Shown here: piece after piece, positions 9,951-57,128 of the stretch
Layout of the letters: every line of letters begins with the position of its first letter
Position numbering within the stretch: position 1 is the first letter of the stretch
Origin: an uncultured Oscillospiraceae bacterium
GTDB lineage: Bacteria > Bacillota > Clostridia > Oscillospirales > Oscillospiraceae
Length of the DNA: 64,000 nt
Direction of reading: 5' to 3'
NCBI GenBank assembly: GCA_947629245.1
Contig: CANRDC010000001.1
Coordinates: 93,667 to 157,666, forward strand
Notes under the pieces: generated by a model
What the model saw: the letters and a program-made list of their open reading frames with translations, nothing else
Told to the model about the DNA's origin: nothing
Database searches by the model: none
Position numbers and translations under genes: made by a program

Positions 9951-10003
9951 CTTTAATGTATGGCAGGTTCTACAATCTTTTAGAAAATGAGGTGTCATAT
10001 AAA

Positions 10004-10364
10004 ATGATTGAACTGCCATTCGCTGAGGCATCTGATGTTCTTGGCGACATCAAGGAGAGGCTTAAGGCTATGAAGCCTACGCCTGTCAACTTCTATCCGT
10101 ATCTCAAACGTGTTCTAAATGAACAGTATGAGAAATTGAAACCGCAGTATCCTAAGGATATCAAAATCCCTAAGGATACGGCGCATCTGCTCCGACAAGA
10201 CTTTGAGCCGGAGTACGTTATTCACTTGGAGGACGTTCCTCGCATGGAGGACGGAACTCCTATGTGGTTCGAGACATCTGAAGACCAGTGTTGGCTCCGT
10301 TTTGGGTACAATAATATGGATGCAAGGTTTATCTCGGACCAGAAATTGAGCATGGAGTACATAC
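10004..10364 (+). CDS. FtsK/SpoIIIE-type ATPase, exon 1 (N-terminal region, no TM helix)
   Basis: The ORF is open from 9956. ATG 10004 has GAGGTG 9 nt upstream. The frame runs into GTGCG at 10365 and stops at 10397-10399 if unspliced. Confidence 0.6.
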
Positions 10365-35445: not shown

Positions 35446-37041
35446 ATGATTTCCCCTGTTGACTTTAAGGTTGCGGACTTCACAGCTAACCTCAGTCCTC
35501 AGATGGCGGCCTCTCTTACGATGGAGGACCTGCATGGTTCAGAGCTGATAGACAATCTGATACTCTTGAAGTTCGTGGACCCTGCGGATATTCAGAGCAT
35601 CTTGCGGACTAAGTACAGTCTTCCCTTCACGATGCTGAAGATAGACCCAACACCTGAGGACTTAAGGCAGTTCGCCGATAAGTATAAAGTCCTGCTTCAG
35701 CGTAATAGGGACACCCTTGTGTGCTATCTCCCTCTTGGACTTCAGCTTGACAACGCCGCACTTGAGGTTGATATCCCGAACTACCGTATAAGGTATATCT
35801 ACATTCCTGACTCGGATTACAACCTCATAAAGACTGGTTTGTCCAGTGATACCATTTCGAGACGAATTGCGGATTTCCGTCCGCTCCTCGTGTTTCGTCG
35901 CTTAGTCATTGACTGCCTGATGCGCGGCGGGACTGACTTACATATGCAGTCACGCTATGTGAATAAGCTTCCTGCGCATTTCATCTTCTACCGCATCAAG
36001 CGTGAAATGACTGCGTCGAACTTTCATATTGACTACGACATGATGCAGAGGGTTGTCAAAGACGCGGTCGGAAAACTCTCTACTGCATCTGCCGCAGATA
36101 TCGACTCGCAGTACGGTGTCACTACTCAGATACCCGACCTGTTCAAAGATGGTACAACTGATGTGCGTTTCCAGTGCATTAGAAATAATGCCGGCCTCAT
36201 GGCGGAGTGCGCCATTCAGAGCATCACGACTACGAATATGAAAGTAGACGAACTCGGCTTTCCTAAGAGTGACGTGGAGCTCATCCGTACTATCTCCAAA
36301 CGTCGCACTGGTTTGACCCTTGTTACTGGTGAGATGCGTTCCGGTAAGAACACCACAATCATGGCGATGGTCAATGAGATTAAGGACGACCCTATCAACA
36401 TCGTGGAGTATTCAAACCCTGTCGAGGTTCGTATGAGCCACAGCCAGCTTGATTATCGTGGTGACATCGACTTGCTTCTGAACCACATGAAGATGGCGAA
36501 GAAGTTCGACATCGACATCGCTATACTCAACGAGATACCTAACTCTGAAGTCGCTTTCGCCGTGCGTGACTTGGTTAACTCCGCCATTGGTGTAACGACC
36601 ACTACGCACATCGACCGCTTGTGGCACGCACCGAATAAGCTGAACGAGTTCTTCGAGAAGGACTATAAGACCATAATCTCTCAGCTTAACGCTATCATCA
36701 ATCATAAGATGTTTAGGCGTTGGTCTGGTCCTGACCTCGTGAAACGTATGCTTTCACCGGAGCAGGGAGACTTCGAGAAGTTCGCGTACAAGGCCGGAGT
36801 GCGCCAGTACTTCGTGCCTAAGGACGCATCTAAGATGAAGTACAGTCTTCAGCCGCTTGTCGAGATACTCGTTATCACCGACGAGATGAAAACCGCCATG
36901 CTTAACTATGATGAGCTTTGGCGTGCTGAGCAGATGCTTCGTTCGCACCTTGAGAGAGCTCACGCTACTATCGAGAATAAGCTCGCAGAGTATATAAATA
37001 GTGGCTTGTGCTCACTCGACGAAATGCGTCTAATCTATTAA
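35446..37041 (+). CDS. GspE/PilB/VirB11-superfamily secretion (traffic) ATPase with a GspE_N-like N-domain and a deviant Walker A
   Basis: LTLVTGEMRSGKNTTIMAMV versus GspE LvTGPTGSGKSTTLya. IVEYSNPVEV versus iEdPvE. FDIDIAILNEIPNSEVAFAVRDLVNSAIGVTTTTH versus dPDvimvGEiRD.ET......AalTGHlVlsTLH. GGAGGAGG RBS. Confidence 0.75.
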   Translation: MISPVDFKVADFTANLSPQMAASLTMEDLHGSELIDNLILLKFVDPADIQSILRTKYSLPFTMLKIDPTPEDLRQFADKYKVLLQRNRDTLVCYLPLGLQLDNAALEVDIPNYRIRYIYIPDSDYNLIKTGLSSDTISRRIADFRPLLVFRRLVIDCLMRGGTDLHMQSRYVNKLPAHFIFYRIKREMTASNFHIDYDMMQRVVKDAVGKLSTASAADIDSQYGVTTQIPDLFKDGTTDVRFQCIRNNAGLMAECAIQSITTTNMKVDELGFPKSDVELIRTISKRRTGLTLVTGEMRSGKNTTIMAMVNEIKDDPINIVEYSNPVEVRMSHSQLDYRGDIDLLLNHMKMAKKFDIDIAILNEIPNSEVAFAVRDLVNSAIGVTTTTHIDRLWHAPNKLNEFFEKDYKTIISQLNAIINHKMFRRWSGPDLVKRMLSPEQGDFEKFAYKAGVRQYFVPKDASKMKYSLQPLVEILVITDEMKTAMLNYDELWRAEQMLRSHLERAHATIENKLAEYINSGLCSLDEMRLIY

Positions 37042-40708: not shown

Positions 40709-41269
40709 ATGTCAGCTCCACTTTTAGCGACGAAGCGCTTTGACCTTATGCCCTTGCTCGTCAGAAACGCTCCTCAGATGTATTCCAGATGGTTAACCGA
40801 TAAGGAGGTCGCCAGGTTTTGTACCTGGACCCCAAATCGCAGTATGGAGCAGGCAGTCTCCTATGTTGAGTCAGAAGTCGAAAGAGACAAACGTGACGAC
40901 TACTTCGCATGGGGAATGTACTTTGACTCATATAAGAAGAACTCCTACCACCCGCAAATCTTTGGGCAGATTACACTCGCCGTGAACACAAAGACTTCAA
41001 CTGGTTCTGTCGAGTTTGTAGTCATGCGCCCTGAGTGGAACAAGGGCTACGCAACCGAGGCTGTTGCTAAGGTTGTTGAGTTTGCTCTGCATAATCTCGC
41101 ACTCCGACGTGTCATTGCGACATGCAATGTGGAGTGCATAGCGGCACAGCATGTGCTTGAGAACGTTGGCATGAAGAGACTCTACGAGTTTCACATGCCT
41201 TGGAAGACAAAAGAAGGGTGCAACATGGTGCGCTATCAGGTTACGCGCGAGCAGTATTTTGGCGAATAG
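40709..41269 (+). CDS. GNAT-family N-acetyltransferase (RimJ/RimL-like)
   Basis: VVMRPEWNKGYATEAVAKVVEFALHNL is the typical GNAT motif A of this subfamily (..GkGyatEA......a). The length of 186 aa fits. Confidence 0.75.
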   Translation: MSAPLLATKRFDLMPLLVRNAPQMYSRWLTDKEVARFCTWTPNRSMEQAVSYVESEVERDKRDDYFAWGMYFDSYKKNSYHPQIFGQITLAVNTKTSTGSVEFVVMRPEWNKGYATEAVAKVVEFALHNLALRRVIATCNVECIAAQHVLENVGMKRLYEFHMPWKTKEGCNMVRYQVTREQYFGE

Positions 41270-41323: not shown

Positions 41324-42610
41324 ATGTTAGGAGAAAGCAGGATTAAGAAGGGGTCCGGCATCGTTATCAAGGAGGGTAACTCACTGTCCAGCAGTGTTAA
41401 CCTCATTGCTGGTATCGACGCTGGTTCCACCGAGACTCGCGTATGCTTGGCTGACGCTACCGACGCCGAGCTCTTTGCGAACGAGTCGAGAGTGAAGGAG
41501 GCCCTGCAGGCTTTGGGGAAAGTCTACACCATTCCTTCCACCTATGCAACTACAATGGACAACAGAGAGATAATCCCTGCGAGTCAGAATATCGAGGACA
41601 ACTATGACAGTACCATCATGATGGTGCGTGTGTCTGCTGAGCACCCTATGGTCACGCGGCACCGTGTTCTCCGTGGGAAGAAGATGCGCGACGCGACTGG
41701 TCTGGTCGCCAGGTATCTCGACAGCAGTACAAACAAATCGGATAACCCGATTTTCTACATAAACATTATCGACGCCCTTGGCTATGCCATCATGCATAAG
41801 TACAACGGTGCCATTCCGAGAACGGTCAACGTTCAGATGGTCTTGTCAGTCAGGCCGAAGGAGCAGACCTCTATCTGCCGTGACCGCATGATTGAAAACA
41901 TCATCGGTCAGTTCATCTTCTCGTGGAAGAACACAAGCATCACGCTAAACATTCAGAGCATCGACTTCACAACGGAGCCGGAGGCACAGGTGTTCGGCAC
42001 TACAACTATCTGCGACCTGAAATACACGGAGAACCCCGACACCGGCGAAAGCTTCAAGGAGCTGGCCGACAGGCTTTCCAACTCTCGTACATACATTCAC
42101 ATCGAGGGTGGTGGCTCCTCTATCGGCGTCGAGGTGGTTCGTGACGGTCAGCTGGTCGACAGCTGTTCGAGCACGTTCCAGCTCGGCGGGAACTACCTCT
42201 GCCAGATTTTCATCGACAGGGTTCGTGAAAGCATCGGAAGGACGGTGTCTGTCGACGCCGCGAATGAAGCCCTCGTTACTACGCTCCTGCGTGATGGGCG
42301 TGATACCATTGATGTCAACGGCATCGTGGCGGACTGCAAGAACCAGTTGGCTCTCGACATTGTCGAGCGCCTGCGCCACAATGTGATTGACCTCAATCAC
42401 TGGCTGTCCTTGCAGGACGTTGAGTTCATAACACTCGGCGGAAGGCTGTTCCGTCAGGATAAGAGAGGCAACACAATCAGCACCTATCTGAGGGAGTATA
42501 TACAGCAGATTTCTCCTAACACCGACGTAATCGTCTTGACGGAGAACTGCATACCTCAGGGCAACCTCGTTATTGGTTTGAACGCCGATAACGAGAGTGC
42601 CACAGCGTAA
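41324..42610 (+). CDS. Actin-like ATPase (ParM/Alp-type segregation protein; a PilM/FtsA-like role is not excluded)
   Basis: Phosphate-1 LIAGIDAGSTETRV, phosphate-2 YIHIEGGGSSIGVEV and adenosine motif FITLGGRLF occur in the order typical of the ASKHA/actin fold. Confidence 0.65.
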   Translation: MLGESRIKKGSGIVIKEGNSLSSSVNLIAGIDAGSTETRVCLADATDAELFANESRVKEALQALGKVYTIPSTYATTMDNREIIPASQNIEDNYDSTIMMVRVSAEHPMVTRHRVLRGKKMRDATGLVARYLDSSTNKSDNPIFYINIIDALGYAIMHKYNGAIPRTVNVQMVLSVRPKEQTSICRDRMIENIIGQFIFSWKNTSITLNIQSIDFTTEPEAQVFGTTTICDLKYTENPDTGESFKELADRLSNSRTYIHIEGGGSSIGVEVVRDGQLVDSCSSTFQLGGNYLCQIFIDRVRESIGRTVSVDAANEALVTTLLRDGRDTIDVNGIVADCKNQLALDIVERLRHNVIDLNHWLSLQDVEFITLGGRLFRQDKRGNTISTYLREYIQQISPNTDVIVLTENCIPQGNLVIGLNADNESATA

Positions 42611-42970: not shown

Positions 42971-43773
42971 TAACACCGCTTATGCACATTCTCAGCTGTC
43001 TCGATAAGGACTATTCGATGGTCTCACCGTTGAGTATCCTCTACCTGAATAAGGTCGATAGGGACGTAATAATCTCCGAAGCTAAGAGAATGTGCGACAT
43101 GCTTTTCGATGGCGACATAATTGCCATCGACGACCAGCCGAGCCTCGATGGAAGGTATCTGGTGAGCAGAGACCAAGTTGTCAACGACTCGTATAGAACT
43201 ATCAATGTCTATACTCAGCTCCTGCTTACACGGATACGTGACTGTGCGAGAAAGTACGTTGCAGACGTGAACAACGTGGCTAAGCAAGAGGACGATGAGG
43301 ACCTAAGCGCCGAGTCAACCGTTCTCAACATGGAAGGCAACCCGGAGTATGTATACAAGTTTGTGTACACTACGATGCGAGGCGCCACCCAGTCGAACTT
43401 TGGCAGCAAGATTGAGAAGTTGCAGGAAATCTATTCTGTACTCATTTCGCATACCGATGTCCAAGAGGGCGACGATAAGGCTATGCTCGACAGGCTTGGC
43501 GCTCAGGCTCAAATGAACTATTGGCGTACACTTCTAATGCGCGATTACATGCAGGCGTTTCGCACACTCCCTCCTGAGTTCAATGCAACTACGGTGGAGG
43601 AAATCAGAGAGGACTTACAGAGTCTTGGCTTCTATGGCTTTGTCAATCCTCTTGAGATGTATAATGCCTTTTCACGTTCCCGCATTGGAAGAAAGTCCAA
43701 TGTCGTCGTTGAGCCTACGTCCATAGAGTTCCTTCGTGACGCAATACTTGCTGGTGGAGGTAAGGTAGAGTGA
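42967..43773 (+). CDS. Hypothetical protein (268 aa)
   Basis: GGGAGG RBS and ATGA overlap with the upstream gene. Confidence 0.55.
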   Translation: MITPLMHILSCLDKDYSMVSPLSILYLNKVDRDVIISEAKRMCDMLFDGDIIAIDDQPSLDGRYLVSRDQVVNDSYRTINVYTQLLLTRIRDCARKYVADVNNVAKQEDDEDLSAESTVLNMEGNPEYVYKFVYTTMRGATQSNFGSKIEKLQEIYSVLISHTDVQEGDDKAMLDRLGAQAQMNYWRTLLMRDYMQAFRTLPPEFNATTVEEIREDLQSLGFYGFVNPLEMYNAFSRSRIGRKSNVVVEPTSIEFLRDAILAGGGKVE

Positions 43774-44876
43774 AGAGTATCATCGACGTTTCGTCAGTGG
43801 TTTATGCTGGCCACGCCGGCAGACCCGACATGCAGTTTCAGGGATTTCCTATCGGTGGACTGAATAAAATACTGCGCCTTATCTACTCTGAGTTGTTTAA
43901 TGGGAGCGTCGCCTTGTGTTTCGATGGCGGTAATATCCTTAAGAAGGAGCTACTTCCGACGTATAAGGCAGAGCGTATTCCTGACTACTCAGTTATGGCG
44001 CAGATTGACGTCCTCAAGGAAATACTGACTGGGTGTAACATTCCGTTCTACTTCGACCCGAAGTACGAGGCCGATGACTTCGTGTACAGTGTTGTCAATC
44101 AGTGCACTTGTCTCGGCGATAAGTCGGAGATTAGGGTTTACTCCGACGACAGGGATATCTCTTGCTGTGTCAAGCCCAACTGTTCCGTCTATCCTGTCTC
44201 GTCTCATGGCACTATCATCAACATGTCGAACTACTCAGAGCATGTGGTTCGCGACAGGAGTATTCCGTACAACAGTATCTTGCTGTGGAAGATTTTCCAT
44301 GGCGACGCATCAGATAAATATAAGGGGATTACAATCCCCGGCGTGAACTTCGATACTTTTGCCCATGACTATATCGCGGAGGTTTCACCATTCATTGAGA
44401 ACGGCAGCTTCCCTGATACCTACTATGCAGAATATGAGGTCCTTGAAGCTTTTGTCAGCTCTTACAACGGGTTGTCCAGCGAGGGCGCAAAGAAGACATT
44501 TCTTGAGCAGGGGCGCATTGTGTTCCCCTACAAGTTGGAAACCTTGACATCAAGCATGGACGATGTCGTCGCCGACTTGCAAAAGGGTATGACTGTTCTG
44601 CAAGCTGAGCAGAAGCATATGAAGTTCTTTGACAGCAGTTCGATAGATGGTGCTCGCTTTGAGTTCGTTACTTCGATGCTTAACCATCGTGGTAAGCTTA
44701 TGCGGCGGCATCACAAATATAACGAGGACGATGCTGAGGGCGACGAGGTTCGTAAGTTCTTTAGCCTAAGAGCTAAGGACTTGTCGTCCGGTGTGTTCGC
44801 CGCTGAGCGGTATAAAAATCGCCAGGCCATAATGCCCCAGACTGAAGTCCTCAAGAATATGGACTTGCCTATATGA
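43770..44876 (+). CDS. Flap endonuclease / 5'-3' exonuclease (PIN-like plus H3TH, Pol I 5'-exo family)
   Basis: ALCFDGG, LLPTYKAERI (compare YKA.R), KYEADDFV (compare EADD), VYSDDRDISCCV (compare DkDl.QL) and HGDASDKYKGI (compare GD.sDNiPGv). Confidence 0.8.
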   Translation: MKSIIDVSSVVYAGHAGRPDMQFQGFPIGGLNKILRLIYSELFNGSVALCFDGGNILKKELLPTYKAERIPDYSVMAQIDVLKEILTGCNIPFYFDPKYEADDFVYSVVNQCTCLGDKSEIRVYSDDRDISCCVKPNCSVYPVSSHGTIINMSNYSEHVVRDRSIPYNSILLWKIFHGDASDKYKGITIPGVNFDTFAHDYIAEVSPFIENGSFPDTYYAEYEVLEAFVSSYNGLSSEGAKKTFLEQGRIVFPYKLETLTSSMDDVVADLQKGMTVLQAEQKHMKFFDSSSIDGARFEFVTSMLNHRGKLMRRHHKYNEDDAEGDEVRKFFSLRAKDLSSGVFAAERYKNRQAIMPQTEVLKNMDLPI

Positions 44877-45493
44877 TAAGAGGGGTGATTACAGTGGGGC
44901 ATGACCGCGTATACGACCTGTATTTCCGTGTGAGGACTTCTCAGTTGGAAAACGGAACTTACAGCCTGGAGTTCTTGAATTGGATAAAAGCTGGCGTGGC
45001 GTACAATATTCGTGGCGTCGAGGTCAGCTCAAGAAAGATTTCCTATTTTGCTGAGCTCTATGGTAAAGTAATGTCGGGTGAAGATATGCACCCCTATACA
45101 CGGGAATTGCGCGTCGCACTGTCTCGCTTCTACGAGGACTTATATAGGCTTTACCACGACCATGTAACCGCGGCGCGAAACGCTGCTGGTAAGAAGGGAA
45201 ACGGTTCTATACCGTTGATAACTAATCTGCTCTTAGTTCCTGCTTTTGAGCAGACTCCGTTTATGAGGGACCTGTTCCCAACGAGGGAAGTAATTATTGA
45301 TGATTATGTACCTCAACACCCACTGGAGATGAACAGAGAGCAGGATACCATTCACCTTGAGTCAAAGGACGTCTGGTACAAAGCAATGGCGCTCTACTAC
45401 GACTGTGGGGTTAAAACCTCTATCAAGGCAAACAGTGGCGCCAGCAATTCTGAGGAAAGTGCTTTCCTGTTGGAGGTAACAAAATGCCAGTGA
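44873..45493 (+). CDS. Hypothetical protein (206 aa)
   Basis: ATGA overlap with the FEN gene. No motif recognised. Confidence 0.5.
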   Translation: MIRGVITVGHDRVYDLYFRVRTSQLENGTYSLEFLNWIKAGVAYNIRGVEVSSRKISYFAELYGKVMSGEDMHPYTRELRVALSRFYEDLYRLYHDHVTAARNAAGKKGNGSIPLITNLLLVPAFEQTPFMRDLFPTREVIIDDYVPQHPLEMNREQDTIHLESKDVWYKAMALYYDCGVKTSIKANSGASNSEESAFLLEVTKCQ

Positions 45494-46077
45494 CAGATAC
45501 TGAGCGGATTACTATGAGGGTGCCCCTTAATATGGGGCACCTGATTGGCAACACGCTGAGACAATACGCCATGCGTGGCAGCCACACATGGCAGATAGCC
45601 GCGTATAATGTCGGGCCCAGAGCTGGTAGCTATGGCTTTGCAAACGAGCTTAGTTTTAGCTGTCTTGACCTTCTTAAGGGTGTGCTCATATGTAATGATA
45701 AGCCCGAACCTGGGAAGGAAAAGAAGTGCGTGTTCCAGCTAAAAGGCAACGAATACGTATGCGGCGACATGAAAATCGTCAACCTTGGCAATCTCGGAAT
45801 AACATCTATGAACGTGTGTTTGGTCTGCGCAAGTGGAACACGCACGGCGGAGCAAAATTTTGAGGTTGCGAAAAGGCTGTGTCCTGCGGAACAATCGGAC
45901 TTTGTCGCCGTGCCGAGCCGACATACAAGGGCCATAAAATTCCGCTACGAAGTAACACCGTACGATTTAACCACAGAGATACTGGATATTGAGGCGACAG
46001 CTGGAGTGGTCAACTTCGCCCGTAGCGCCGCTATTCAGTCTCTCCAAGAGCTCTCCATGCAGGTTCAGCCCGCATAA
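45484..46077 (+). CDS. RNA polymerase alpha-subunit N-terminal-domain-like protein (no linker or CTD); tentative
   Basis: GGAGG RBS. By-eye collinear match to E. coli RpoA 1-235: [34 protein letters not shown] versus [46 protein letters not shown] versus [28 protein letters not shown] versus [44 protein letters not shown] versus [30 protein letters not shown]. Confidence 0.45.
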   Translation: [197 protein letters not shown]

Positions 46078-46082: not shown

Positions 46083-46460
46083 ATGGGCACTAAATCTGAG
46101 TATGCCCCTGTATTCGGGTTGTATCTAAACCCTGCTGACCTACGCATTTTGTATGATAATACTGCGTTGAGCACAGTCCCAGCGTCTCAGTATTTTGAAA
46201 TGCAAGCGCGTGGAGAAGGCATCGGAGAGTATCTTCCTATCCCTGATGGCACAACGCATTGGAAGTCCGCCTGGTATAAGAACTTCTTAGTTAATGCCAG
46301 CGTAGAGGGCGAGGACCTCTATGTACTGGCTAATGACGCGAGGTTTGGACTGACGTACTTTCATTATGTGTTTGCTAAAGATAAAAGACTCTATAGGTAT
46401 TGCAATGATATGCCTTATAGGGTCGTAATACTCGAAAGGAGAAAAATACCATGCCCGTAA
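46083..46460 (+). CDS. Hypothetical protein (125 aa)
   Basis: ORF in the operon that overlaps the next gene by 10 nt. No obvious RBS. Confidence 0.45.
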   Translation: MGTKSEYAPVFGLYLNPADLRILYDNTALSTVPASQYFEMQARGEGIGEYLPIPDGTTHWKSAWYKNFLVNASVEGEDLYVLANDARFGLTYFHYVFAKDKRLYRYCNDMPYRVVILERRKIPCP

Positions 46461-47827
46461 CCTCTAATCTCGCGAACGTTGCCAACAATGCCAGAATGGT
46501 TGCTCCTATGGACCTCGGCGGCAGCGCTCCCAGCATCCCCGGTGACTTCACCGGTGGCATCACCACCGCGACCGGCGACCTCTCCGCCCGTATTCAGAAG
46601 GCTGTTCAGAAGTACGGCTATCTGTACGGCTATATCATGAGGTACGCTCCCCGCATCGAGTTCGCCATGCTCAAGAAGAAGAAGGACAAGGGTACCGCTG
46701 AGTACGAAATCGGCGTCCGTCAGACCCGTCCCTCCAGCATCGAGCGCGTCCTCGTGACCCTGCCCGCCATGGCTATTTGCAACGGCGAGCACACCATCGC
46801 CTCCCCTGAGGAAATCCAGCAGTGCGCCGTTGACTACAACAGGCCCGTGACTGACGTCGTGAACCTGGTGTGGGAGAAGGACGTTGCTTGCGCCTACCTG
46901 CTGGCCCTCGGCGGCATCATTCCGGAGTACAAGCCCAACGTGGTCGAGGGCGCCAGCGAGCAGTGGCCCGCTCAGCTCCTTGAGTCCGGTTCTCCCGATG
47001 TCTCCTATGTGAAGGTCACGGCTCGCAAGAAGCCCAACGCCGCCACCGGCATCACCATGAACCTGAAGTGCACCACTCGGCGTACCCTCCTCACTCAGCA
47101 CAACTTCGTCGCCCTCCGCGCCTATGAGCACATTCCTCTGAAGCCCAAGGCCGACGCCGCCTTCATGTATGAGCTGAACGAGTCTGCTTTCGGCACCTGG
47201 AGGAACCGCCGTCTCAACCGTGAGAGCACTGTCTCCATGCTTGAGGACGCCATCAACCAGTGCCCGAGCCAGATTGCTCGTACCACCTACACCTTCACCG
47301 ACAAGAACGGCGAGACTGTCGAGAAGAACGACGGCATCATGTCCTGCTTCACTCTCGACAAGAACGCGAAGGACAATGCCCTGAAGCTCTCCGGCGCTCA
47401 TGCTGAGATGGTCCAGGCCATGACCGCGACCTCCGCGAAGTTCGTGCCCTGGTACACCGCCGCTACTCAGAAGAAGGACGAGAAGACCTCCTATGAGAGC
47501 GCGACCCGCATCGTCAAGCGCGAGTATCGTGAGACCAAGAGCGGCGACAAGAAGCTCCGCACCATTCCTCTGAACTGGCGTGACAACAAGAACGCCGAGG
47601 AGTTCGCTCCTTACGTCTCCTTCGCCGCCAACGCTCAGAGCGCGGGCTATGTGACCGCGGCTCAGCTCGACTCCCTGGCCACCGCCTCCAACCGCGGCAG
47701 CAAGCAGAAGACCAACCTGCTCGCTGACAAGGATATCAAGGCCGGCTTCACCGCCATGCTCCGCGACGACACCTTCAAGAGCCGTCTGGACGAGGCCCGT
47801 CGGGAGTTCGCCGTTCAGGGTGTGTAA
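46451..47827 (+). CDS. Highly expressed (codon-optimised) protein of unknown function (458 aa); possibly the main structural or DNA-associated protein of the element
   Basis: AAGGAG RBS. Very strong GC3 codon bias that produces a full-length antisense shadow ORF. Followed by two strong hairpins. Confidence 0.6.
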   Translation: MPVTSNLANVANNARMVAPMDLGGSAPSIPGDFTGGITTATGDLSARIQKAVQKYGYLYGYIMRYAPRIEFAMLKKKKDKGTAEYEIGVRQTRPSSIERVLVTLPAMAICNGEHTIASPEEIQQCAVDYNRPVTDVVNLVWEKDVACAYLLALGGIIPEYKPNVVEGASEQWPAQLLESGSPDVSYVKVTARKKPNAATGITMNLKCTTRRTLLTQHNFVALRAYEHIPLKPKADAAFMYELNESAFGTWRNRRLNRESTVSMLEDAINQCPSQIARTTYTFTDKNGETVEKNDGIMSCFTLDKNAKDNALKLSGAHAEMVQAMTATSAKFVPWYTAATQKKDEKTSYESATRIVKREYRETKSGDKKLRTIPLNWRDNKNAEEFAPYVSFAANAQSAGYVTAAQLDSLATASNRGSKQKTNLLADKDIKAGFTAMLRDDTFKSRLDEARREFAVQGV

Positions 47828-47829
47828 TC

Positions 47830-47840
47830 CACACTTCTGC
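47830..47840 (+). repeat. Direct repeat copy 1: CACACTTCTGC
   Basis: Exact 11-mer starting 3 nt after the stop codon of ORF 46451-47827. It recurs exactly 400 nt downstream. Confidence 0.8.
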
Positions 47841-47862
47841 GGCTTACCGGCAGCATAAGAAA

Positions 47863-47893
47863 GTGGGTAAGGTCGAAATGCGGCCTTACCCAC
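47863..47893 (+). terminator. Strong hairpin after the codon-optimised gene
   Basis: GTGGGTAAGG-tcgaaatgcgg-CCTTACCCAC. Confidence 0.5.
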
Positions 47894-48166
47894 ACTACTG
47901 CATTGGCGCCGCCTAATGGGTGGCGGTGACCTGCGAAAATGAGAGATTGTGACGTCCTTGCCGGCTTGTAGGTTAGGCAGATTTTATCAGTACGAGGTTC
48001 TCGTCTAACTGAAAATCGCCGCCATAAGACCCTGCTTGGCTTGCCATGGTGCCCTTGTTACGGTTAGTTTTTCCGTTTGGCGCCGCGTAATGTAGCATTT
48101 AAGCCTGAGTGAATCGGGCATCGGATTAGCTCTATAAAAACTAAAGACTTAAGTGCTCCCAGAAAC

Positions 48167-48209
48167 GAAGCCCCCGAAGTTAGGAATAGTTCCTGACTTC
48201 GGGGGCTTT
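48167..48209 (+). terminator. Long GC-rich hairpin (terminator-like)
   Basis: GAAGCCCCCGAAGT-TAGGAAtagTTCCTG-ACTTCGGGGGCTT followed by TG. Confidence 0.6.
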
Positions 48210-48229
48210 GCCGTCTCCCTGCAAGATTT

Positions 48230-48240
48230 CACACTTCTGC
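48230..48240 (+). repeat. Direct repeat copy 2: CACACTTCTGC
   Basis: Exact 11-mer located 36 nt upstream of ATG 48276. Confidence 0.8.
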
Positions 48241-48275
48241 ACCAACACTGAAATATATCCTAAGGGGTGGTCGCC

Positions 48276-49376
48276 ATGTTAACTATCAACAGTCTCGACG
48301 ACGTTCGTGGGAATAACGTTGTCATTTATTCAATCAAGAAACTCCTCGCCAACCGCACATATCCTACATTCTCGATAATGTCTGGTAATATGGGCGTTGG
48401 CAAATCGACAGTCGCCAGGCTTGTCGCTGAAGCGTTAAACATGTCTGAGGCTCCTGTTCATATCTATAACTTCGGCATGGATATCAACATGAAGGAGCTT
48501 GAGGAAACTGTTTTCAAGATGAACCCTTCTGAGCCAAGGGCTTTCGTCTTTGAGGAGCTTCATGGATTGGACAAAAGTCAACAGACTGCATTGCTTACCA
48601 TGCTCGACTCGCAACCCTCTAACGTTTATATAATATGTACGACTACCGAAATCTACAAAGTTCTAAGGACTATTCGTAGCCGCGCACACGTTTGGGAGTT
48701 CCGCTTGCTTGGTGAACGCCAGCTTGCTCAGCTTCTTGATGACTATCTCGAAGCCGAAGGAATAACCAATTTCTCTAAAACCGCCAAGTCCGTTCTTCTT
48801 AAGTCGGCTCGTGGTGTACCTCGTGACCTTCTAAAGAATACAGATATTGCAATCGCCGGCGAGTTTAACAGTGAGAATTTGAACCAATTATTAGGTCAAG
48901 TTTCGGAAGACCTGATTTTCGCGCTCTTTTGCTCATTAAAAACACAGTCGGTTGAGTTCACGAGCAACATATCCCAGTTGATGGATGAAGGCAGTGAGCA
49001 CAAGTTAGCTCAACTGCGTGATTTCTGGACGCGTTATCTTCTCGAACAACGCGGCATTGATAACCCGACAATCTCTAAAGATAAGTTGGAGCAGCTCTCA
49101 TTGTTGTTCTCGGTTGACGAGGCTATTAAAGTCGCCAGGACTTTAATCCGTGCCACAGAGGACACTCTGATGCTGGAACTGGTCGCCTTGAATATGGAGC
49201 TCACTAAAACCTCAGCTGGTTATCAGGTTGGTCAGCAAAAGGATAAGAGAGCACAGGGCACAGCGCAGGGTATTGTTACTGCTCCCTCTGAGGCTGTCGC
49301 GCGAAGGAAAGAAAACGCCAGGATTTCACCCATCAGCTTAGATGGCTATCAATTGAATTCATCGAAGGAGAAGTGA
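48276..49376 (+). CDS. Clamp-loader AAA+ ATPase (DnaX/HolB, RFC-like)
   Basis: Walker A SGNMGVGKST. Walker B AFVFEELHGL. Sensor/SRC-type motif KVLRTIRSRAHVWEF (compare tI.SRC..f.f). Confidence 0.75.
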   Translation: MLTINSLDDVRGNNVVIYSIKKLLANRTYPTFSIMSGNMGVGKSTVARLVAEALNMSEAPVHIYNFGMDINMKELEETVFKMNPSEPRAFVFEELHGLDKSQQTALLTMLDSQPSNVYIICTTTEIYKVLRTIRSRAHVWEFRLLGERQLAQLLDDYLEAEGITNFSKTAKSVLLKSARGVPRDLLKNTDIAIAGEFNSENLNQLLGQVSEDLIFALFCSLKTQSVEFTSNISQLMDEGSEHKLAQLRDFWTRYLLEQRGIDNPTISKDKLEQLSLLFSVDEAIKVARTLIRATEDTLMLELVALNMELTKTSAGYQVGQQKDKRAQGTAQGIVTAPSEAVARRKENARISPISLDGYQLNSSKEK

Positions 49377-49815: not shown

Positions 49816-52800
49816 ATGCGTAAGCGTTTTAAAGGCATAATCGTACGTGTGTCTGCCTTTATGCTGGTCTTGGTTATGACCATGACTGAAGCGTTGGCTG
49901 TGAACAAAGAAGTCAAAGTGTTCGGCGCCAAGTCTATTAACGACATGGGTGGGAGCGACCATCGCGTTACGATGGACGAACTCTATGATGATTACTCTGA
50001 CTTTGTTCAGGTTGACACACTTCGCGAGTATTTCCATAAAGACCAACCATCTCCTGCTAAGGCCGACCTCGGCACTGAGCTGAGTTGGTTGATTGACAAC
50101 AACATCATATCACGCGATAGTGTGATAATTGTCTCCAATGTTGGTGACAACACTATTCCTGAAGTCAACATTGAAAAGATGGATATTTCCCAGATAAACG
50201 TACAGAGCGTAACGAGGACCGACCTTATTATGCATCTGTATAAGGCTGTGTTCGGTCCCATCAATGCCAGGAGTATTGGCGTTGAAACTGCTAACGTTCG
50301 CGTTGATGACGGCGAGTACATAACACTCGAAGACCTTATGAAGAAGAGTGGGTTCTCTGAAGGTGTTAGCACACCTGTTGTTCCGCCGTATGATATAACC
50401 ACTGAGGGCGCCAGCGGAGGAGCTGGTGGTAGTGGTGGAGCCGGAGCTGTCAGCGGTCAGGGTGGCGAAGGCGGCGAAGGTGGCAAAACCTCTACTGGCG
50501 GAAATATGACACAGCAGGCAAATAACGACTCTTCTAACTGGAGGTACCAGCCACAGGGTGATTTGTGGGAAAGTATCTTTGGTGACACTAACATCTTCAT
50601 CAGCCAGAACGAGTTCACGCAGACGCAGACCGGCGGTACCGGCGGTAATGGCGGCGGAGGCGGTAACGGAGGAGAAGGCGGAGATGCTGATAAGGGCGGC
50701 GATGGCGGTGACGGTGGTGACGCTTCCGGCGGAGGCATCGACGACGACGGCAATACCATAGAGGGAACTCCTGGTGGCGACGGGGGCGATGGTGGTGACT
50801 CACTTGGTGGCGGCGGAGGCGGCGGCGGCTCCGGTGGAACTGGCGGGCAGGCCGTTACCGGTCCGAACCAGATTGACTACGAGACTGACTACAAGCAAAT
50901 CTACTTCATTCCTGGCGCCGACATCCTGTTCTACAACACTAACGATGTACCTGAGCCTTACATTCGTGAAGCCTTGGCGAAGGGACTTCTCACAGGTGAT
51001 AAAGAACTGAGGACTGAGGAGTTCAATAAGACATTCATTGACTTCTACTCTAACGATAACACCATTCGTGCATCGTGGGAGGGAAGCGTTCCGGCGTATG
51101 TTGTCAACCGCTCAATCAATAAGTTGAAGACTTATGCGAACGTCGATAATGTCGCCATGCAGTTTGTCCTTGGCTCTTGCTGGAATGTGTCTTACTCTAA
51201 CGGCACTATGACTATCGAAAGACTCAACCCCTTCGAGGCTAAGTCTGGTTACTTCTCCTCCGAGTATGTAACGAAGATGGAAATGTACCGCTACATTTAT
51301 GAGTTCCTGTACGCAAACGAGAAGGTCCTCTCGGACCTCGAACGTGATATCGTGAACTATAAGTATGGTACTCAGCTTGAGGGCATTGTGAACGGTGAAG
51401 ATGCTGAAATCATTGAGTATCTGATTGCAAAGGGAATTATCAACTATGATATCTCCACGGAATTTATGAACCTTGGTAACCCTGTGCACTGGTGCGATTT
51501 GATTAGTATGCTCTATCGCCTGGCGAATAAGAACGCTCGCTATGACTTCTCCGTCATTCAGCTGACTGACTCTGAAGCTGCTTGGAAGGCTCGCGGCTTT
51601 GGTCCTCGTACGCTAACTGCTGTGCCTTCGTCTTCGACTGGTACTATTAGGTTGGCGGACGAGAATGCTCCGGACTTTAATGGAGACAATGTTCTTATAT
51701 CCGAAGAAGTCGGCGAGTCATTTGAGGCAGTTGCAACATCTAAGGTAGACGACGGTTATAACTTTGTTAACTTCGGAGACCCAACTGACAACACGATAGC
51801 TACCGCGAGCACATCTGATATGTACAGCTATCGGTACACTTTCACAACAACTGGTCTTGCGCTGACTCTTAATGATGCTACTTCAACTCTATCAAGTGTG
51901 CTAAATAGAGAAGTAGATTACAATGCGATTGGACTCGCTGGACAACCGCAGACTGCAGCTGGTAGATATGTTGCAGTAATGCTGTACGACATGTTCACTA
52001 ACAAAAGCGGGTATACAAAGAAGAACGGGTACAACTCAACTGATGCATATCAGGCTGATGTACTCGACTGGCCTACGACTTGTACTGGTGATGACCCAGC
52101 TGGAAGAATACTTGCTGATGTCCTTTGTAATATGTGGGTCATAGGGACATGGCAGAAAAATCCTCAGGACCGTTCGAGGAACGAGGTCGCACATATACTT
52201 ACTGATGTTATGGCGTACATGAAGGAGAAAGAGGAAAAGCATAAAGCTAATCCTGATAATCCGCTCTATCCTGCACGTACGGCTGAGGAGAACCTTGCAT
52301 ATAATGCACTTATATCGTTGGACCAGCGATATCATGAGAGCTATAAAGAAGACAGTGGCCCTCAGAACATCAGCTTCGTGTTCTTGAATAAAGGCGCGGC
52401 TGATGGAGCAACTAAGTTCCAGAAACTCACTACTCCGGGAGCGTACTCTCAGAGCTTTGGCGATTGCTTTAATGGGCTCGCAGGCTGTACATATAATATT
52501 AAGGTTGACGGTGTCACTAAGAACTACGTTGCACAATTTGCTTCATTGCCCTCTGTAAATACTCAACGTGTTGTCAATGGTGACCCTCTGATACTGGAGA
52601 TTGCCGGTAACTGCCAGCTCAACGTTGTTACCGCTACGGAGGATAACGACCTTGCCAAAGCAGTTAAGGCTGCTGGTAATAGCTCTGGTAGTCTCGGCGC
52701 ATTTGATGCTGCGAGTATGACAGTTGGCATTACTACGCAGGTTTCTAATTCCGGCTCAGAGGGCTTTGTGTCTCGTAGCCAGATTGAGCAATATAATACA

Positions 52801-55575
52801 AGTTGCACCAATCAGGACGACATGCTGCCACTCACTTTTATAAGTGACTTTATAATTCTTAACACTCAGACCAACACGAGAGCTTATTTCTACAATGACA
52901 ATACAGACGCTAATAAATCCATTGCGCTTGTAGGTAATGAAGTGGTGACTGGCGACAGCCAGCTTGGCGTTGTGTTCAGAAGCGGTGAAGGTGAGTCAGC
53001 AGACATCTACTATCACATTAATGCAATTAGACTGCTTGTCGACTCGAAGCAGGAAGCCTCTATACTCGGTGGAGTATGTCCGTTGCCACTTGCTGACGTT
53101 GTCGTTACTGAGAACCTTAAAGAGGTTGTAGTCGATAATGGCTCGGGGACTAATACTATAACAGTACCAGGCCTGTGGGTCCTTATGAGTAAGGACGATG
53201 AGACTACATCTAAGTCGCTCCCAACTGACTCGGTGTACTTCAGTAGCCCAGCGTTTTATAATATGCGATGGGGTGAATTCATTGGACTATCTCAGTCCAA
53301 TAGAATGGCGAATGCAGTCGCCAGGCAGTACACCTATGAATATAACGGCGCGACACAGGCAGTCTACATGGTTCTTATGTTTGAACCGCTGTCCGTGCAG
53401 GCTATGGGTTCTGAAACTGTTACAAGTGAGATGTCTATGGAGGACCTGCTTGACGGCATAACTCAGCCACCTGCAGATAGTGTAGCAAAGCAAATTTGGA
53501 CTACGAATAAAGAGCGGGCAAACGCCTTCGCTAACTGGATTTACCAGACCACTGGTGTGAATTATGTTAACACTGGCTACCTGGAGCCACACGCATACAT
53601 CTACAGCACTGATGGTCAGGCGAGTAGCCATGTCCCAGCATCTTTCTGGTCAGCACTTGATGCAGTCGCAGGGCTTCGCGGTAATGTCACCGAGGTTCAG
53701 CTGATGAATGTGAGTGATGGTGCTCTTGCTCCTCCGGGTTCTGGTAAGCCAACTATCTCTAATACGAGTTATATCAGTAGTCCGCAGCATAAGGCGAATT
53801 ACCTGCTATCAGCAGACTACAAAGTAGCCGTTGTAGGAAACCGTGTTTATGTGAATGTTGGCTGCTTCCCGAATATAGAGCAAGGCGGCAGCGATTCTAA
53901 CTTCAGATATCGTACCAGTGGCGTTGGACGAAATCTCGCTACATTTACTGTTGGCAGTGTAATCAAGTTAGATAAGATTAAAGGCATCGTGTTCGACGGG
54001 GTCAAGGTTCCAAAGCTTACTGTTACTAAAACAGCAAGTGATGGAACTATTACGTGCCAGTTTGGCCCTATTGTAGGGCCGTCGTTCAAGGTTGGCAGCT
54101 CAACTGTTGTGCTTCGTGAAAATGTAGTTGATGGCGAAAAGACATTGACTCTTAACGATGCTCAATCAGGAGCCATAAATCGTATCAGATACATCTATGA
54201 ACAGGTGTTTAGAGACTCACTTGGTATACCCTGGGAAAACTTCTCTGTTGCTGAAAACCCGGCTCTTGATGTTGATACGACACGCACCCTTGTAAACACC
54301 GGTGCCAAGACGTGGGTAATGAACGGGAATGGAAATAGTAAGACTGGCGAAGTAGACACACTAAAGTACGATGGCGAGAGCGCCATCGAGACAGAGCTAA
54401 ATGCCTGGGTGAGCGCTAATAGTGGTAAGCTGTCACGTGAGGCAGCTAGCAATACTGAGACTTTTCTTACTGTAAAGTTTAGTGCCCTCGAATACCGTGT
54501 GGAGAATGGAACATTGATTAAGGGTCCCTCTCGTGTGAGTGATTTTGTGTCGCCTGAACTTTTCACTTCGCTTAACGACTTGATTATCGATAAGATGATA
54601 AGTGAAGATACTGGCGCCATCCCTCTCGAAGAGGTTCCGGACGGTTCGCTTGTCTTGATGGGTAGCGACTACTATGCCGCATCTGGTGGTTCAGCAGCTG
54701 ATAAAAAGTTTATCGGTTACTCGGCGCTTAACGGTACTGGGACTATCGAGCAATCGTATGCGACAGAGCAGGACGCGGCGAAATCCTTTGCGTCACATTT
54801 CATTTATGTTGGCAATCAGCCAATGAACATTACGCACTTCTTTACCGAGTTCTGGGTCATTACGTCGTTTACGGAAGAGCAGAAAACTGCGCTCCAGATA
54901 TGCGCCGATAATTTACAGTCTGGGCTGTATAGCCGTAAAGCTCTTGGACGCTTGCCAGGTAGTGTTACGACTACGATAGTTGATAAGGGGTATGGCGCAG
55001 ACACTCGTTTCTATGCACCAGTGCAGATTAAAGTACAGCCTGGGACACTTCTTGCTTATGAGACTTCGTCTCCGAATGACGCTGTTAAGAAGTATGAAAT
55101 TATTCCTACTGCTGATAGCGCCATGAGTGGCGCGCTTGATAATCTACCATTCTTCAATGACAGCGTGCTTAGTGGAACTGCTCGAAGCGTCACCACTGAC
55201 GTTATTCAGGGTGGGTTCAAGAAGTATGAGGGTGCGAAGTCCATTCTCGAAGACGTGGAAACTGAGTACGAGTATGGGTTCGCCAGCGATTTGTTCACCC
55301 TTGCACGCATGTTAGTCTTCATCGTTTTGGTATGGTTGGTGTGTGCAAGCTGGCTGTGCTTCGGTTGTTATTATGGTGGACTTATGCCGGTGCTTGAGTC
55401 CATCAGATACCCCACTAATAATAGAGAGGGAAAGGGCATCGATTTGTTCAAAATAGTCTCTCTCGGCTCCATTTCGATGGAGACTGATTTTAAGGTGGGG
55501 CGTTTCATTCAGTACAATCTCGTTCTTGCTGTACTGCTCGTGGTGGTTTGGCTGAGCGGGAACATCACATTCTAA
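49816..55575 (+). CDS. Giant secreted/envelope protein (1919 aa): signal peptide, Gly-rich low-complexity region, SLH-like motifs, two C-terminal TM helices
   Basis: Signal peptide MRKRFKGIIVRVSAFMLVLVMTMTEALA. Gly-rich run GGAGGSGGAG...GGDGGDGGDS. SLH-like IIEYLIAKGIINYD...VHWCDLISMLYRLA and SVTRTDLIMHLYKAV. C-terminal TM helices LVFIVLVWLVCASWLCFGCYYGG and LVLAVLLVVVWLSG. Confidence 0.65.
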   Translation: MRKRFKGIIVRVSAFMLVLVMTMTEALAVNKEVKVFGAKSINDMGGSDHRVTMDELYDDYSDFVQVDTLREYFHKDQPSPAKADLGTELSWLIDNNIISRDSVIIVSNVGDNTIPEVNIEKMDISQINVQSVTRTDLIMHLYKAVFGPINARSIGVETANVRVDDGEYITLEDLMKKSGFSEGVSTPVVPPYDITTEGASGGAGGSGGAGAVSGQGGEGGEGGKTSTGGNMTQQANNDSSNWRYQPQGDLWESIFGDTNIFISQNEFTQTQTGGTGGNGGGGGNGGEGGDADKGGDGGDGGDASGGGIDDDGNTIEGTPGGDGGDGGDSLGGGGGGGGSGGTGGQAVTGPNQIDYETDYKQIYFIPGADILFYNTNDVPEPYIREALAKGLLTGDKELRTEEFNKTFIDFYSNDNTIRASWEGSVPAYVVNRSINKLKTYANVDNVAMQFVLGSCWNVSYSNGTMTIERLNPFEAKSGYFSSEYVTKMEMYRYIYEFLYANEKVLSDLERDIVNYKYGTQLEGIVNGEDAEIIEYLIAKGIINYDISTEFMNLGNPVHWCDLISMLYRLANKNARYDFSVIQLTDSEAAWKARGFGPRTLTAVPSSSTGTIRLADENAPDFNGDNVLISEEVGESFEAVATSKVDDGYNFVNFGDPTDNTIATASTSDMYSYRYTFTTTGLALTLNDATSTLSSVLNREVDYNAIGLAGQPQTAAGRYVAVMLYDMFTNKSGYTKKNGYNSTDAYQADVLDWPTTCTGDDPAGRILADVLCNMWVIGTWQKNPQDRSRNEVAHILTDVMAYMKEKEEKHKANPDNPLYPARTAEENLAYNALISLDQRYHESYKEDSGPQNISFVFLNKGAADGATKFQKLTTPGAYSQSFGDCFNGLAGCTYNIKVDGVTKNYVAQFASLPSVNTQRVVNGDPLILEIAGNCQLNVVTATEDNDLAKAVKAAGNSSGSLGAFDAASMTVGITTQVSNSGSEGFVSRSQIEQYNTSCTNQDDMLPLTFISDFIILNTQTNTRAYFYNDNTDANKSIALVGNEVVTGDSQLGVVFRSGEGESADIYYHINAIRLLVDSKQEASILGGVCPLPLADVVVTENLKEVVVDNGSGTNTITVPGLWVLMSKDDETTSKSLPTDSVYFSSPAFYNMRWGEFIGLSQSNRMANAVARQYTYEYNGATQAVYMVLMFEPLSVQAMGSETVTSEMSMEDLLDGITQPPADSVAKQIWTTNKERANAFANWIYQTTGVNYVNTGYLEPHAYIYSTDGQASSHVPASFWSALDAVAGLRGNVTEVQLMNVSDGALAPPGSGKPTISNTSYISSPQHKANYLLSADYKVAVVGNRVYVNVGCFPNIEQGGSDSNFRYRTSGVGRNLATFTVGSVIKLDKIKGIVFDGVKVPKLTVTKTASDGTITCQFGPIVGPSFKVGSSTVVLRENVVDGEKTLTLNDAQSGAINRIRYIYEQVFRDSLGIPWENFSVAENPALDVDTTRTLVNTGAKTWVMNGNGNSKTGEVDTLKYDGESAIETELNAWVSANSGKLSREAASNTETFLTVKFSALEYRVENGTLIKGPSRVSDFVSPELFTSLNDLIIDKMISEDTGAIPLEEVPDGSLVLMGSDYYAASGGSAADKKFIGYSALNGTGTIEQSYATEQDAAKSFASHFIYVGNQPMNITHFFTEFWVITSFTEEQKTALQICADNLQSGLYSRKALGRLPGSVTTTIVDKGYGADTRFYAPVQIKVQPGTLLAYETSSPNDAVKKYEIIPTADSAMSGALDNLPFFNDSVLSGTARSVTTDVIQGGFKKYEGAKSILEDVETEYEYGFASDLFTLARMLVFIVLVWLVCASWLCFGCYYGGLMPVLESIRYPTNNREGKGIDLFKIVSLGSISMETDFKVGRFIQYNLVLAVLLVVVWLSGNITF
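50401..50850 (+). repeat. Coding low-complexity GGN-rich region (Gly/Asp/Glu/Ser repeats)
   Basis: Reiterated GGCGGTGAC, GGCGAAGGC and GGTGGC units read directly. Encodes GGxGG repeats. Confidence 0.7.
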
Positions 55576-56870: not shown

Positions 56871-57128
56871 ATGAAACAGAAACTAATTTATATCGTTGGC
56901 ATTATCTTAGTGGCTGCTATTGTCATTTATTCGCCATTTGAGAGAAAAAACTCAGAAATAGGCGACATACTCAACGACTGGGGTGAACATCAGCAGGAAA
57001 TGTCTGATAAGTTCACTGACCAAGTAGTATCAGGTGCAGAGGGCTCCTGGGTCGGCGAGCATCAAGTCGACGGCTCTAACTGGAGTATTCCTAATATTCT
57101 TCGTCATATCCTGGGGGTAGACAGATGA
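56871..57128 (+). CDS. Small single-pass membrane protein (85 aa)
   Basis: AAGGAG RBS. TM helix LIYIVGIILVAAIVIY. ATGA overlap with the next gene. Confidence 0.5.
   Translation: MKQKLIYIVGIILVAAIVIYSPFERKNSEIGDILNDWGEHQQEMSDKFTDQVVSGAEGSWVGEHQVDGSNWSIPNILRHILGVDR

Follow-up and report, generated by a model that had tools for sequence, protein, structure and literature searches.

The gene at positions 45484-46077 of the 64-kb stretch of DNA from an uncultured Oscillospiraceae bacterium (the whole stretch is hereafter called the window) encodes a true, highly diverged homolog of the N-terminal domain (NTD), the dimerization and assembly domain, of the bacterial RNA polymerase (RNAP) alpha subunit. 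The protein has neither the linker nor the C-terminal DNA- and activator-binding domain (CTD) of bacterial alpha, and its gene belongs to the conserved core of a large family of extrachromosomal-type elements of 100-470 kb that carry strong Shine-Dalgarno sites. Multisubunit RNA polymerases universally have alpha as their assembly platform. The reading tentatively preferred here is that the element protein may be incorporated in host RNAP as a CTD-less alpha protomer beside host alpha, where it would form the beta'-side half of a heterodimer. The gene and its start signal are as follows.

45484..46077, + strand: alpha-NTD-like gene, 197 amino acids (aa) plus stop codon (open reading frame and translation)
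45472..45476, + strand: Shine-Dalgarno sequence GGAGG, 7 nt 5' of the ATG (direct sequence reading)

The alpha-like open reading frame (ORF) is a real, conserved gene. Translation of its + strand coordinates agrees exactly with the 197-aa product quoted in an earlier note on this DNA. A word-indexed search of 5.8 billion proteins returned 26 homologs with 47-60% identity, all of 189-208 aa, which are located on metagenome contigs of up to 306 kb and bear neither a Pfam domain nor a name. When the family profile was run against 1.84 billion cluster representatives in a full HMMER scan, 53 matches were obtained, about 40 of them to proteins of 153-227 aa; the other 13 are long proteins matched in multiple short stretches, and the six of these that were read are repetitive adhesin-like proteins and are treated as artefacts. 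The protein found no match in INPHARED phages (DNA and protein), PLSDB plasmids, IMG/VR or the GTDB representative genomes. Its start codon lies inside the upstream ORF, with a 10-nt overlap with the stop of that ORF, and the next ORF begins 5 nt past its own stop; the gene is coupled translationally to its neighbors and, with its Shine-Dalgarno site, looks like one that is expressed. Similar sites precede most ORFs of the window, and most of its credible genes have strong GGAGG sites.

Homology to the N-terminal domain of RNA polymerase alpha

The predicted fold of the protein is that of the alpha NTD. An AlphaFold2 model for which only close-family sequences were used reached a mean predicted local distance difference test score (pLDDT) of 86.6 and a predicted template modeling score (pTM) of 0.73, and its topology is that of the split alpha: a strand, a helix (residues 18-30), a strand, a beta-rich insert (approximately 43-140), three strands and a C-terminal helix (175-188). 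Foldseek comparison of this model with the PDB yielded 292 matches at an expect value (E) of 1e-3 or below, the best with E of approximately 1e-7 and probability 1.00. Every one of the top 50 matches is a chain from a bacterial RNAP entry, among them 1bdf, the crystal structure of the E. coli alpha NTD, and the matches to bacterial RNAP show template modeling (TM) scores of 0.50-0.62 at 10-19% identity. By AlphaFold and Foldseek, then, the two-domain NTD fold, in which a dimerization domain is split by an insert domain, is present in the element protein. Against the BFVD viral structures the model gave no significant match; the two top-probability rows were both poxvirus RPO35, with E of 0.12 and 0.24 and a TM score of 0.28.

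Family profiles lead to the same conclusion. A profile of the 50-sequence family alignment with the distant members included (A3) matched 47 distinct sequences in the PDB, every one of them named RNA polymerase subunit alpha. The best matches were to P. gingivalis (4.2e-11), entry 9n9p (1.1e-9) and C. difficile (9.6e-7), with E. coli at approximately 3e-3. The match spans profile positions 9-186 and alpha residues 30-229, virtually the entire NTD, and a direct hhalign comparison of A3 with the E. coli NTD gave a probability of 89% and E of 2.4e-6. The distant member P0069, about 20% identical, is encoded in the same gene order and is linked to the close family by hhalign with E of 8e-11. By itself, P0069 matched the NCBIfam rpoA equivalog models at 2.8e-13, in their NTD part only and far under the trusted cut-offs, while the syntenic member P0073 matched rpoA models at 1.5e-10. 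Several such distant members show split matches to Pfam RNA_pol_L below threshold.

The query taken alone had no significant match in Pfam, PHROGs, NCBIfam, PADLOC or a phmmer search of the PDB, and the close-family profile, compared with the PDB and with E. coli alpha, recovered the helix-1 motif only or nothing significant. Thus, the sequence claim for the query runs through a chain of distant syntenic members, and the fold match, which draws on the close family only, is independent of that chain. The reference family for RpoA is TIGR02027 together with Pfam PF01193, PF01000 and PF03118; the query has no match to these models, and the best relative falls below the curated cut-offs, with 49.5 bits compared with 277 for NF003519 and 20-22 compared with 24 for PF01193.

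The earlier note had described the protein, by eye, as collinear with the RpoA NTD, and both the fold match and the family-profile matches bear this out. All four of the correspondences it proposed reappear in the profile alignments to E. coli alpha; the aligned pairs are a 10-residue stretch in each protein, LDLLKG with LLNLKG, AVPSRHT..F.YEV with DACYSPV..AYNVE, and the C-terminal helix. Of the comparisons it had suggested, that with alpha profiles is significant through the 50-sequence family profile, though not for the query alone, and that with the RpoA NTD structure finds 1bdf and other bacterial alphas.

Domain layout and conserved residues

The protein can be divided into the parts of an alpha NTD as follows.

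45484..45609, + strand: dimerization-domain part 1, residues 1-42, with a strand, helix H1 (18-30) and a strand (model secondary structure)
45562..45564, + strand: codon of Gln27, the equivalent of E. coli alpha Arg45, a beta-binding determinant (alignment)
45610..45903, + strand: insert domain, residues 43-140; domain 2 is longer in bacterial alpha (model; hidden Markov model alignment to P. gingivalis alpha)
45904..46056, + strand: dimerization-domain part 2, residues 141-191, with strands followed by the C-terminal helix H3 (175-188)

Part 1 aligns with E. coli alpha 31-59 and contains the conserved helix H1 motif G-x-x-I-G-N-x-L-R-Q. Within the insert domain, the conserved stretch G118-x-R-T-x-x-x-N125 aligns with the region of the bacterial RGRGYV loop, and in part 2 the strands bearing V143, S145, H147, F153, Y155 and V157 align with E. 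coli alpha 173-187. The match to alpha stops at about query residue 191 (alpha residues 229-232 or so), 6 residues before the end of the protein. There is no linker and no CTD, and the family members of alpha-like size (153-227 aa) are too short for either. The proposal that the protein ends where the linker and CTD of alpha would begin is therefore upheld by the alignment and by the equally short relatives.

Conservation within the family is highest at G18, G22, R26, W36, G118, N125, S145, H147, F153, Y155 and V157; at least 90% of members share G18, G22, R26 and W36, and N125 is invariant (50 of 50). By alignment, they fall in the two regions of E. coli alpha that hold the determinants for beta (45, 48) and for beta' (86, 173, 180, 200). 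In E. coli, Arg45 of alpha is needed for binding to beta, and the R45A substitution abolishes formation of the alpha2-beta complex, although it is tolerated in one protomer of oriented alpha heterodimers; positions 173, 180 and 200 are beta'-binding determinants (PMC3294249). The family column equivalent to Arg45 contains Q in 33 of 50 sequences, K in 11 and R in only 2, the query having Gln27. On the beta' side, conserved V143, F153, Y155 and V157 align with E. coli V173, I183, Y185 and V187, so that the hydrophobic residues are kept. A natural parallel is provided by alpha2 of Francisella, the beta'-side half of a natural alpha heterodimer, which has Gln at the Arg45 position and has as its natural partner an Arg-bearing alpha1 (PMC3294249).

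It is this combination of Gln or Lys at the Arg45 position with retained beta'-side hydrophobic residues that favors a heterodimer with host alpha. The window encodes no Arg-bearing alpha-like partner, and host alpha is the presumed one. The protein probably still performs the role of the alpha NTD, namely dimerization and docking to RNAP. It would dimerize via helices H1 and H3 and dock on an RNAP large subunit, with host alpha as the beta-bound protomer (alpha-I) and the element protein as the beta'-bound protomer (alpha-II). In this arrangement, host core made after entry of the element protein would have one alpha CTD instead of two, which would weaken host promoters that depend on UP elements and class I activators and would leave a distinct surface for element factors. 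The earlier note had envisaged a polymerase that could not sense UP elements or class I activators; this is too strong for a heterodimer, in which one host CTD remains.

The same residues bear on an improbable alternative, that the protein is a decoy or inhibitor which dimerizes with host alpha, or binds free beta', and thereby forms dead-end sub-assemblies. Its effect would be to lower the supply of host RNAP or to titrate alpha-binding regulators, with no working hybrid enzyme being made. Loss of the Arg45 equivalent would leave homodimers unable to bind beta, as in E. coli R45A (PMC3294249), and phages are known to act on alpha in other ways, such as ADP-ribosylation or Rac-induced cleavage (PMC7824862). 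However, the strong conservation in the region of the beta' determinants suggests productive docking, and the partition-like gene, replication module and module resembling a type IV secretion system (T4SS) give the element the look of a long-term resident, for which poisoning of RNAP would be costly.

Other polymerase genes and transcription signals

A multisubunit polymerase of the phiKZ/AR9 type would have beta- and beta'-like genes, with double-psi beta-barrels and a DxDGD catalytic motif, in the same genome. Among the best 25 of the 32 Pfam families matched by 49 window ORFs there is no RNAP domain, no large ORF of the window has the DxDGD motif, and no second alpha-like or Rpb11-like ORF is present among the 49. 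The observation in the earlier note that no beta- or beta'-like gene is recognizable in the window thus stands after both the Pfam sweep and the DxDGD scan. Beyond the window, the search for beta and beta' took in approximately 25 kb more from relatives, by Pfam annotation and motif scan: a DFDGD scan of the relatives' loci L001-L017 gave out-of-frame chance matches only, and the precomputed Pfam annotation of loci L020-L022 included no RNAP domain. The total covered, approximately 76 kb, is under a third of a typical element of 100-470 kb.

Homologs of Gre factors were found in three relatives (L020 16379-16969, L021 16089-16610 and L022 14830-15369). In the one relative in which both genes could be placed (contig k141_5516418 of ERZ27297789), the Gre gene is approximately 30 kb downstream of the alpha-like gene. 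Pfam GreA_GreB_N matches at 1e-12 and 1.3e-11 in two relatives, and in the closest relative both Gre domains are sub-threshold. The acidic tip, GD[LF]xEN, is conserved and corresponds to D41 and E44 of E. coli GreA, which indicates that the Gre homologs act on the active site of a bacterial-type multisubunit RNAP. The alpha-like protein and this secondary-channel factor could together make up a kit for re-tooling such an enzyme.

Intrinsic-terminator-like sites, consisting of a hairpin plus a T-run, follow many genes. Matches to sigma-70-type promoters are not enriched between 39 and 58 kb (24 found compared with 20.4 expected), and no alternative promoter motif emerged, the enrichment of intergenic k-mers reflecting terminator T-runs only. 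The sequence CACTTCTGY, noticed by eye, was considered as a promoter motif and set aside, as it is not enriched overall. Its three exact copies (23901, 47832 and 48232, with a near-match at 56790) are all intergenic and on the + strand, and two of the three lie 25-35 nt upstream of start codons, which may be chance.

Besides the residues discussed above, the host-RNAP reading is favored by the absence of beta, beta' and a second alpha-like gene from the sequence covered; the Gre factor and the intrinsic-terminator-like sites also fit it. Stated for the family as a whole it is a more guarded proposition still: giant Clostridia-associated elements may rebuild the RNAP core of their hosts with a CTD-less protomer of the alpha-II type, giving a single-CTD hybrid enzyme, and supplement it with a Gre factor of their own. 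A mobile element that edits the core subunit composition of its host would represent a new principle of take-over.

Several considerations weigh against this proposal. That the protein would bind any polymerase is deduced from its resemblance to alpha, and its identity to cellular alphas is only 10-19%. In place of the bacterial signatures it has W36, N125, S145 and H147, which are family-specific and invariant or nearly so; such residues are unexpected, because the surfaces of host beta and beta' that they would have to fit are highly conserved. The argument from Arg45 turns on a single column of a remote alignment. With approximately 76 kb covered of 100-470 kb, beta and beta' genes of the element could lie elsewhere, and as most element genes are invisible to Pfam, diverged ones could have been missed. 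Sigma-70-type promoters show no enrichment in the region given above, and replacement of alpha during assembly is a slow route to control of a host. Finally, to our knowledge, alpha-like subunits come with their own large subunits in every known system.

This last point, like the lack of sigma-70 promoter enrichment, also speaks for the main rival explanation, somewhat less likely than the preferred one, in which the protein is the assembly platform of a multisubunit RNAP encoded by the element itself. Its beta- and beta'-like genes would be located outside the covered sequence, which leaves 70% or more of the element, and an alpha-like homodimer, or a pair with an undetected partner, would nucleate the enzyme in the manner of Rpb3-like subunits in poxviruses and giant viruses. 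The deep divergence of the protein and the family-specific residues on its partner-binding surfaces would fit co-evolution with equally diverged partners. As a core gene it is inherited vertically, with synteny fixed down to about 20% identity, and the elements are large; they also encode a Gre-like factor and a SNF2-type helicase, a type of protein that tracks with phage RNAP genes according to Iyer et al. (PMC7824862). On the other hand, neither a Pfam domain of beta or beta' nor a large ORF with DxDGD was found in the window, and the extra stretches from relatives gave none by Pfam annotation or DFDGD scan. The known multisubunit RNAPs of phages are without alpha (PMC7598289), so that such an enzyme would have no precedent, and the Gre homolog is a conventional one (E of 1e-12 to the bacterial family), which fits a bacterial-type and possibly host enzyme. 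If the element does make its own polymerase, it would belong to an unrecognized lineage of element RNAPs that has kept alpha, and would bear on the loss of alpha from the phage enzymes.

Comparison with known systems

The closest comparison is with the bacterial RpoA NTD (E. coli residues 1-235 or so, 1bdf). Both have the split two-domain fold and the helix-1 motif G-H-x-x-G-N-x-L-R, the two are collinear over alpha residues 30-229, and all significant fold and profile matches of the element protein are bacterial alphas. Unlike RpoA, it is only 197 aa long, is without linker and CTD and has a shorter insert domain; identity is 10-19%, scores are far under the rpoA and Pfam cut-offs, and Gln or Lys takes the place of Arg45. 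The usual context of rpoA is rpsM-rpsK-rpsD-rpoA-rplQ. In contrast, the alpha-like gene is not in a ribosomal-protein operon; it lies in a mobile-element operon by replication genes, its neighbors being an exonuclease, genes without recognizable function and a clamp loader, on a contig that is mobile-element-like. The protein thus departs from bona fide RpoA in four features: curated cut-offs, CTD, Arg45 and operon context.

Francisella alpha2 resembles the element protein in having Gln at the Arg45 equivalent, as would be expected of a protomer that depends on an Arg-bearing partner alpha and makes no contact of its own with beta (PMC3294249). It differs in being chromosomal and full-length with its partner in the same genome, whereas the element protein is NTD-only and its presumed partner is host alpha. 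Archaeal Rpo3 (RpoD), eukaryotic Rpb3 and AC40, and poxvirus RPO35 are likewise alpha-like assembly subunits that naturally have no bacterial-type CTD, and RPO35 is in addition a case of a mobile genome carrying its own alpha-like subunit. However, Rpo3, Rpb3 and RPO35 work with an Rpb11-like partner and with large subunits encoded by virus or cell, neither of which was found in the window, and the element protein, unlike Rpo3 and Rpb3, is closest to bacterial alpha (47 profile matches and the top 50 fold matches).

An analog for the take-over reading is TraR, a secondary-channel binder of host RNAP encoded by the F plasmid. It is a small protein of a conjugative element that plugs into host RNAP, and the TraR-RNAP entry 6psq is among the fold matches; the elements described here have a Gre-type secondary-channel factor in their T4SS-like module. 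TraR and Gre are accessory proteins that bind finished RNAP, whereas an alpha-like protomer would enter the core during assembly. We know of no mobile element that takes over transcription at the level of core assembly.

The RNAPs of the jumbo phages phiKZ and AR9 are similar in that large mobile genomes encode homologs of bacterial RNAP subunits. They consist of split beta and beta' pieces and have no alpha or omega (PMC7598289), whereas here there is an alpha homolog and no beta or beta' in the covered sequence. In a keyword search of jumbo-phage papers, alpha came up solely as a subunit that phages modify (PMC7824862, PMC13282480), and no alpha homolog encoded by a phage, plasmid or megaplasmid was found in the literature searched. 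The elements described here, of 100-470 kb with a T4SS-like module and their own replication genes, are almost wholly unannotated; the alpha-like protein is small, models confidently and is directly testable.

Conserved gene neighborhood

The order of genes around the alpha-like gene is constant in relatives at 58%, 49%, 36% and approximately 20% identity: a 5'-3' exonuclease, a protein of 189-206 aa, the alpha-like protein, a protein of 561-602 aa, a clamp loader, a protein of 105-154 aa and a giant membrane protein. In the window, the immediate neighbors are the following.

43770..44876, + strand: 5'-3' exonuclease or flap endonuclease (FEN) gene (Pfam 5_3_exonuc_N, PHROG exonuclease), always two genes upstream
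44873..45493, + strand: 206-aa conserved gene, translationally coupled to the alpha-like gene (overlaps, synteny)
46083..47827, + strand: conserved downstream gene in two overlapping ORFs (46083-46460 and 46451-47827), GC-rich, with a terminator-like hairpin after it
48267..49376, + strand: clamp-loader-like AAA+ gene (PHROG clamp loader 6.6e-29; Pfam DNA_pol3_delta2 and AAA)

This setting is the basis of a very improbable alternative, that the alpha-NTD fold now serves as a dimeric scaffold in something other than RNAP; the fixed place of the gene between those for FEN and the clamp loader would suggest the element replisome. The constant order of FEN, 190-206-aa protein, alpha-like protein, protein of about 580 aa and clamp loader is in its favor, as are the translational coupling of the gene to its neighbors and the lack of recognizable function among those neighbors. 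Weighing against it, every significant fold or profile match is to RNAP alpha, and the most conserved residues are at the places where alpha contacts beta and beta' and not at new sites. Moreover, genes for RNAP-binding proteins can sit in replication clusters, as does T4 rpbA beside gene 45, and we know of no use of the two-domain alpha-NTD fold outside RNAP.

The 206-aa product of the upstream gene was considered as a second alpha-like partner of the Rpb11 type and rejected, since its hhalign comparison with the family profile was negative; an AlphaFold model of it made from 3 sequences is poor (pLDDT 51.5). The downstream gene encodes a single protein of 561-602 aa in relatives, whereas here it is divided between ORFs of 125 aa and 458 aa, which are in different frames. 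A separate GGAG site precedes the second ORF, the start of which corresponds in the fused relatives to a Met or Val close to the junction; the division may be genuine, or may reflect an internal start, a frameshift site or an error of assembly. The approximately 580-aa protein found no match in the PDB (also as a profile), Pfam or PHROGs, and no Asp is invariant across its family.

Between this gene and the clamp loader there is a non-coding stretch (47828-48266; in relatives L005 12377-12738, L006 12394-12675 and L016 12308-12864) of 280-560 nt. Two strong hairpin-plus-T-run sites bracket it in the window and in the three relatives, which makes it a candidate small RNA gene; it has no Rfam match at the gathering threshold. 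The second ORF of the downstream gene (46451-47827) and an ORF at 22329-23783 occupy the two GC-richest 2-kb stretches, with a GC fraction of 0.55-0.57 compared with 0.43-0.52 elsewhere. Both have long antisense ORFs, a terminator-like hairpin after each and no family match, and they may encode very highly expressed proteins.

The element family and its gene content

All credible genes of the 64-kb window are on the + strand and no tRNA gene is present in it. Searches of INPHARED phages, PLSDB plasmids and IMG/VR gave no match to the window in DNA or protein, and tblastn comparison of the clamp loader and the T2SSE-type ATPase with phages and plasmids gave remote, uninformative matches only. 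The Pfam sweep described above identified the following genes, together with matches to Toprim, Metallophos and NERD domains.

5309-5995, + strand: PspA/IM30 membrane-stress homolog (Pfam E 7.7e-40)
11096-12802, + strand: FtsK/SpoIIIE-type (VirD4-like) ATPase
30120-32513, + strand: UvrD helicase
32519-34012, + strand: DHH protein (RecJ-like)
35446-37041, + strand: T2SSE-type ATPase
40709-41269, + strand: GNAT protein
41324-42610, + strand: partition-like protein

Two giant ORFs, of 1919 and 2078 aa, encode signal peptides, Gly-rich repeats and C-terminal membrane segments. They were considered as beta and beta' and rejected on account of these secreted or membrane features, with no DxDGD and no family or PDB match; one giant protein of a relative carries SLH domains. 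Just past the window end is a 658-aa P-loop ATPase, whose homologs carry TraG-P-loop/HerA domains and form more than 100 clusters on contigs of 100-470 kb. The giants (49816-55575 and 57125-63361), a multi-pass membrane protein (55591-56721) and this VirB4/TraG-like ATPase, together with the M23 peptidase, 3D-domain protein and SLH-bearing giant of relatives, resemble a T4SS module of the Gram-positive kind, parts of which are also seen in relatives (L008 16530-18506; L021 12028-15234; L022 3095-7141). In relatives, the VirB4/TraG-like ATPase is followed by an M23 peptidase, a 3D-domain protein, a NERD protein, the Gre-factor homolog, the SNF2-type helicase and DnaB.

The elements are probably a giant, conjugative, plasmid-like family of Clostridia. 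A phage identity is possible, the sequence covered being no more than approximately 76 kb of any one genome. A relative lies on CATOJY010000001.1 (310,254 bp, positions 174919-196865, L023), the largest contig of a GTDB representative metagenome-assembled genome labeled uncultured Lachnospiraceae; its VirB4-like ATPase is 35% identical, with similar ORF sizes and order around the ATPase. The only other clue to the host is a partial homolog, P0198, labeled Paraclostridium bifermentans.

A group II intron is present at 10419-11042 (Rfam 10419-10597 and 10956-11042), between the ORFs at 9956-10399 and 11096-12802, with scores of 129 bits for D1-D4 and 55 bits for D5/D6 and no listed intron ORF of at least 110 aa. 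It appears to interrupt the gene for the FtsK/SpoIIIE (VirD4-like) ATPase. The 147-aa upstream ORF may be exon 1, because the Pfam match of the downstream ORF opens at profile position 59 with its first residue.

Upstream of the first gene of the window, a region of approximately 1.9 kb (L010 1-1900; window 1-412) has no called gene, many hairpins and no Rfam match. Contigs of three independent assemblies end 0.45-1.5 kb upstream of the first window position, and the region may represent a repeat, an origin or the end of a genome.

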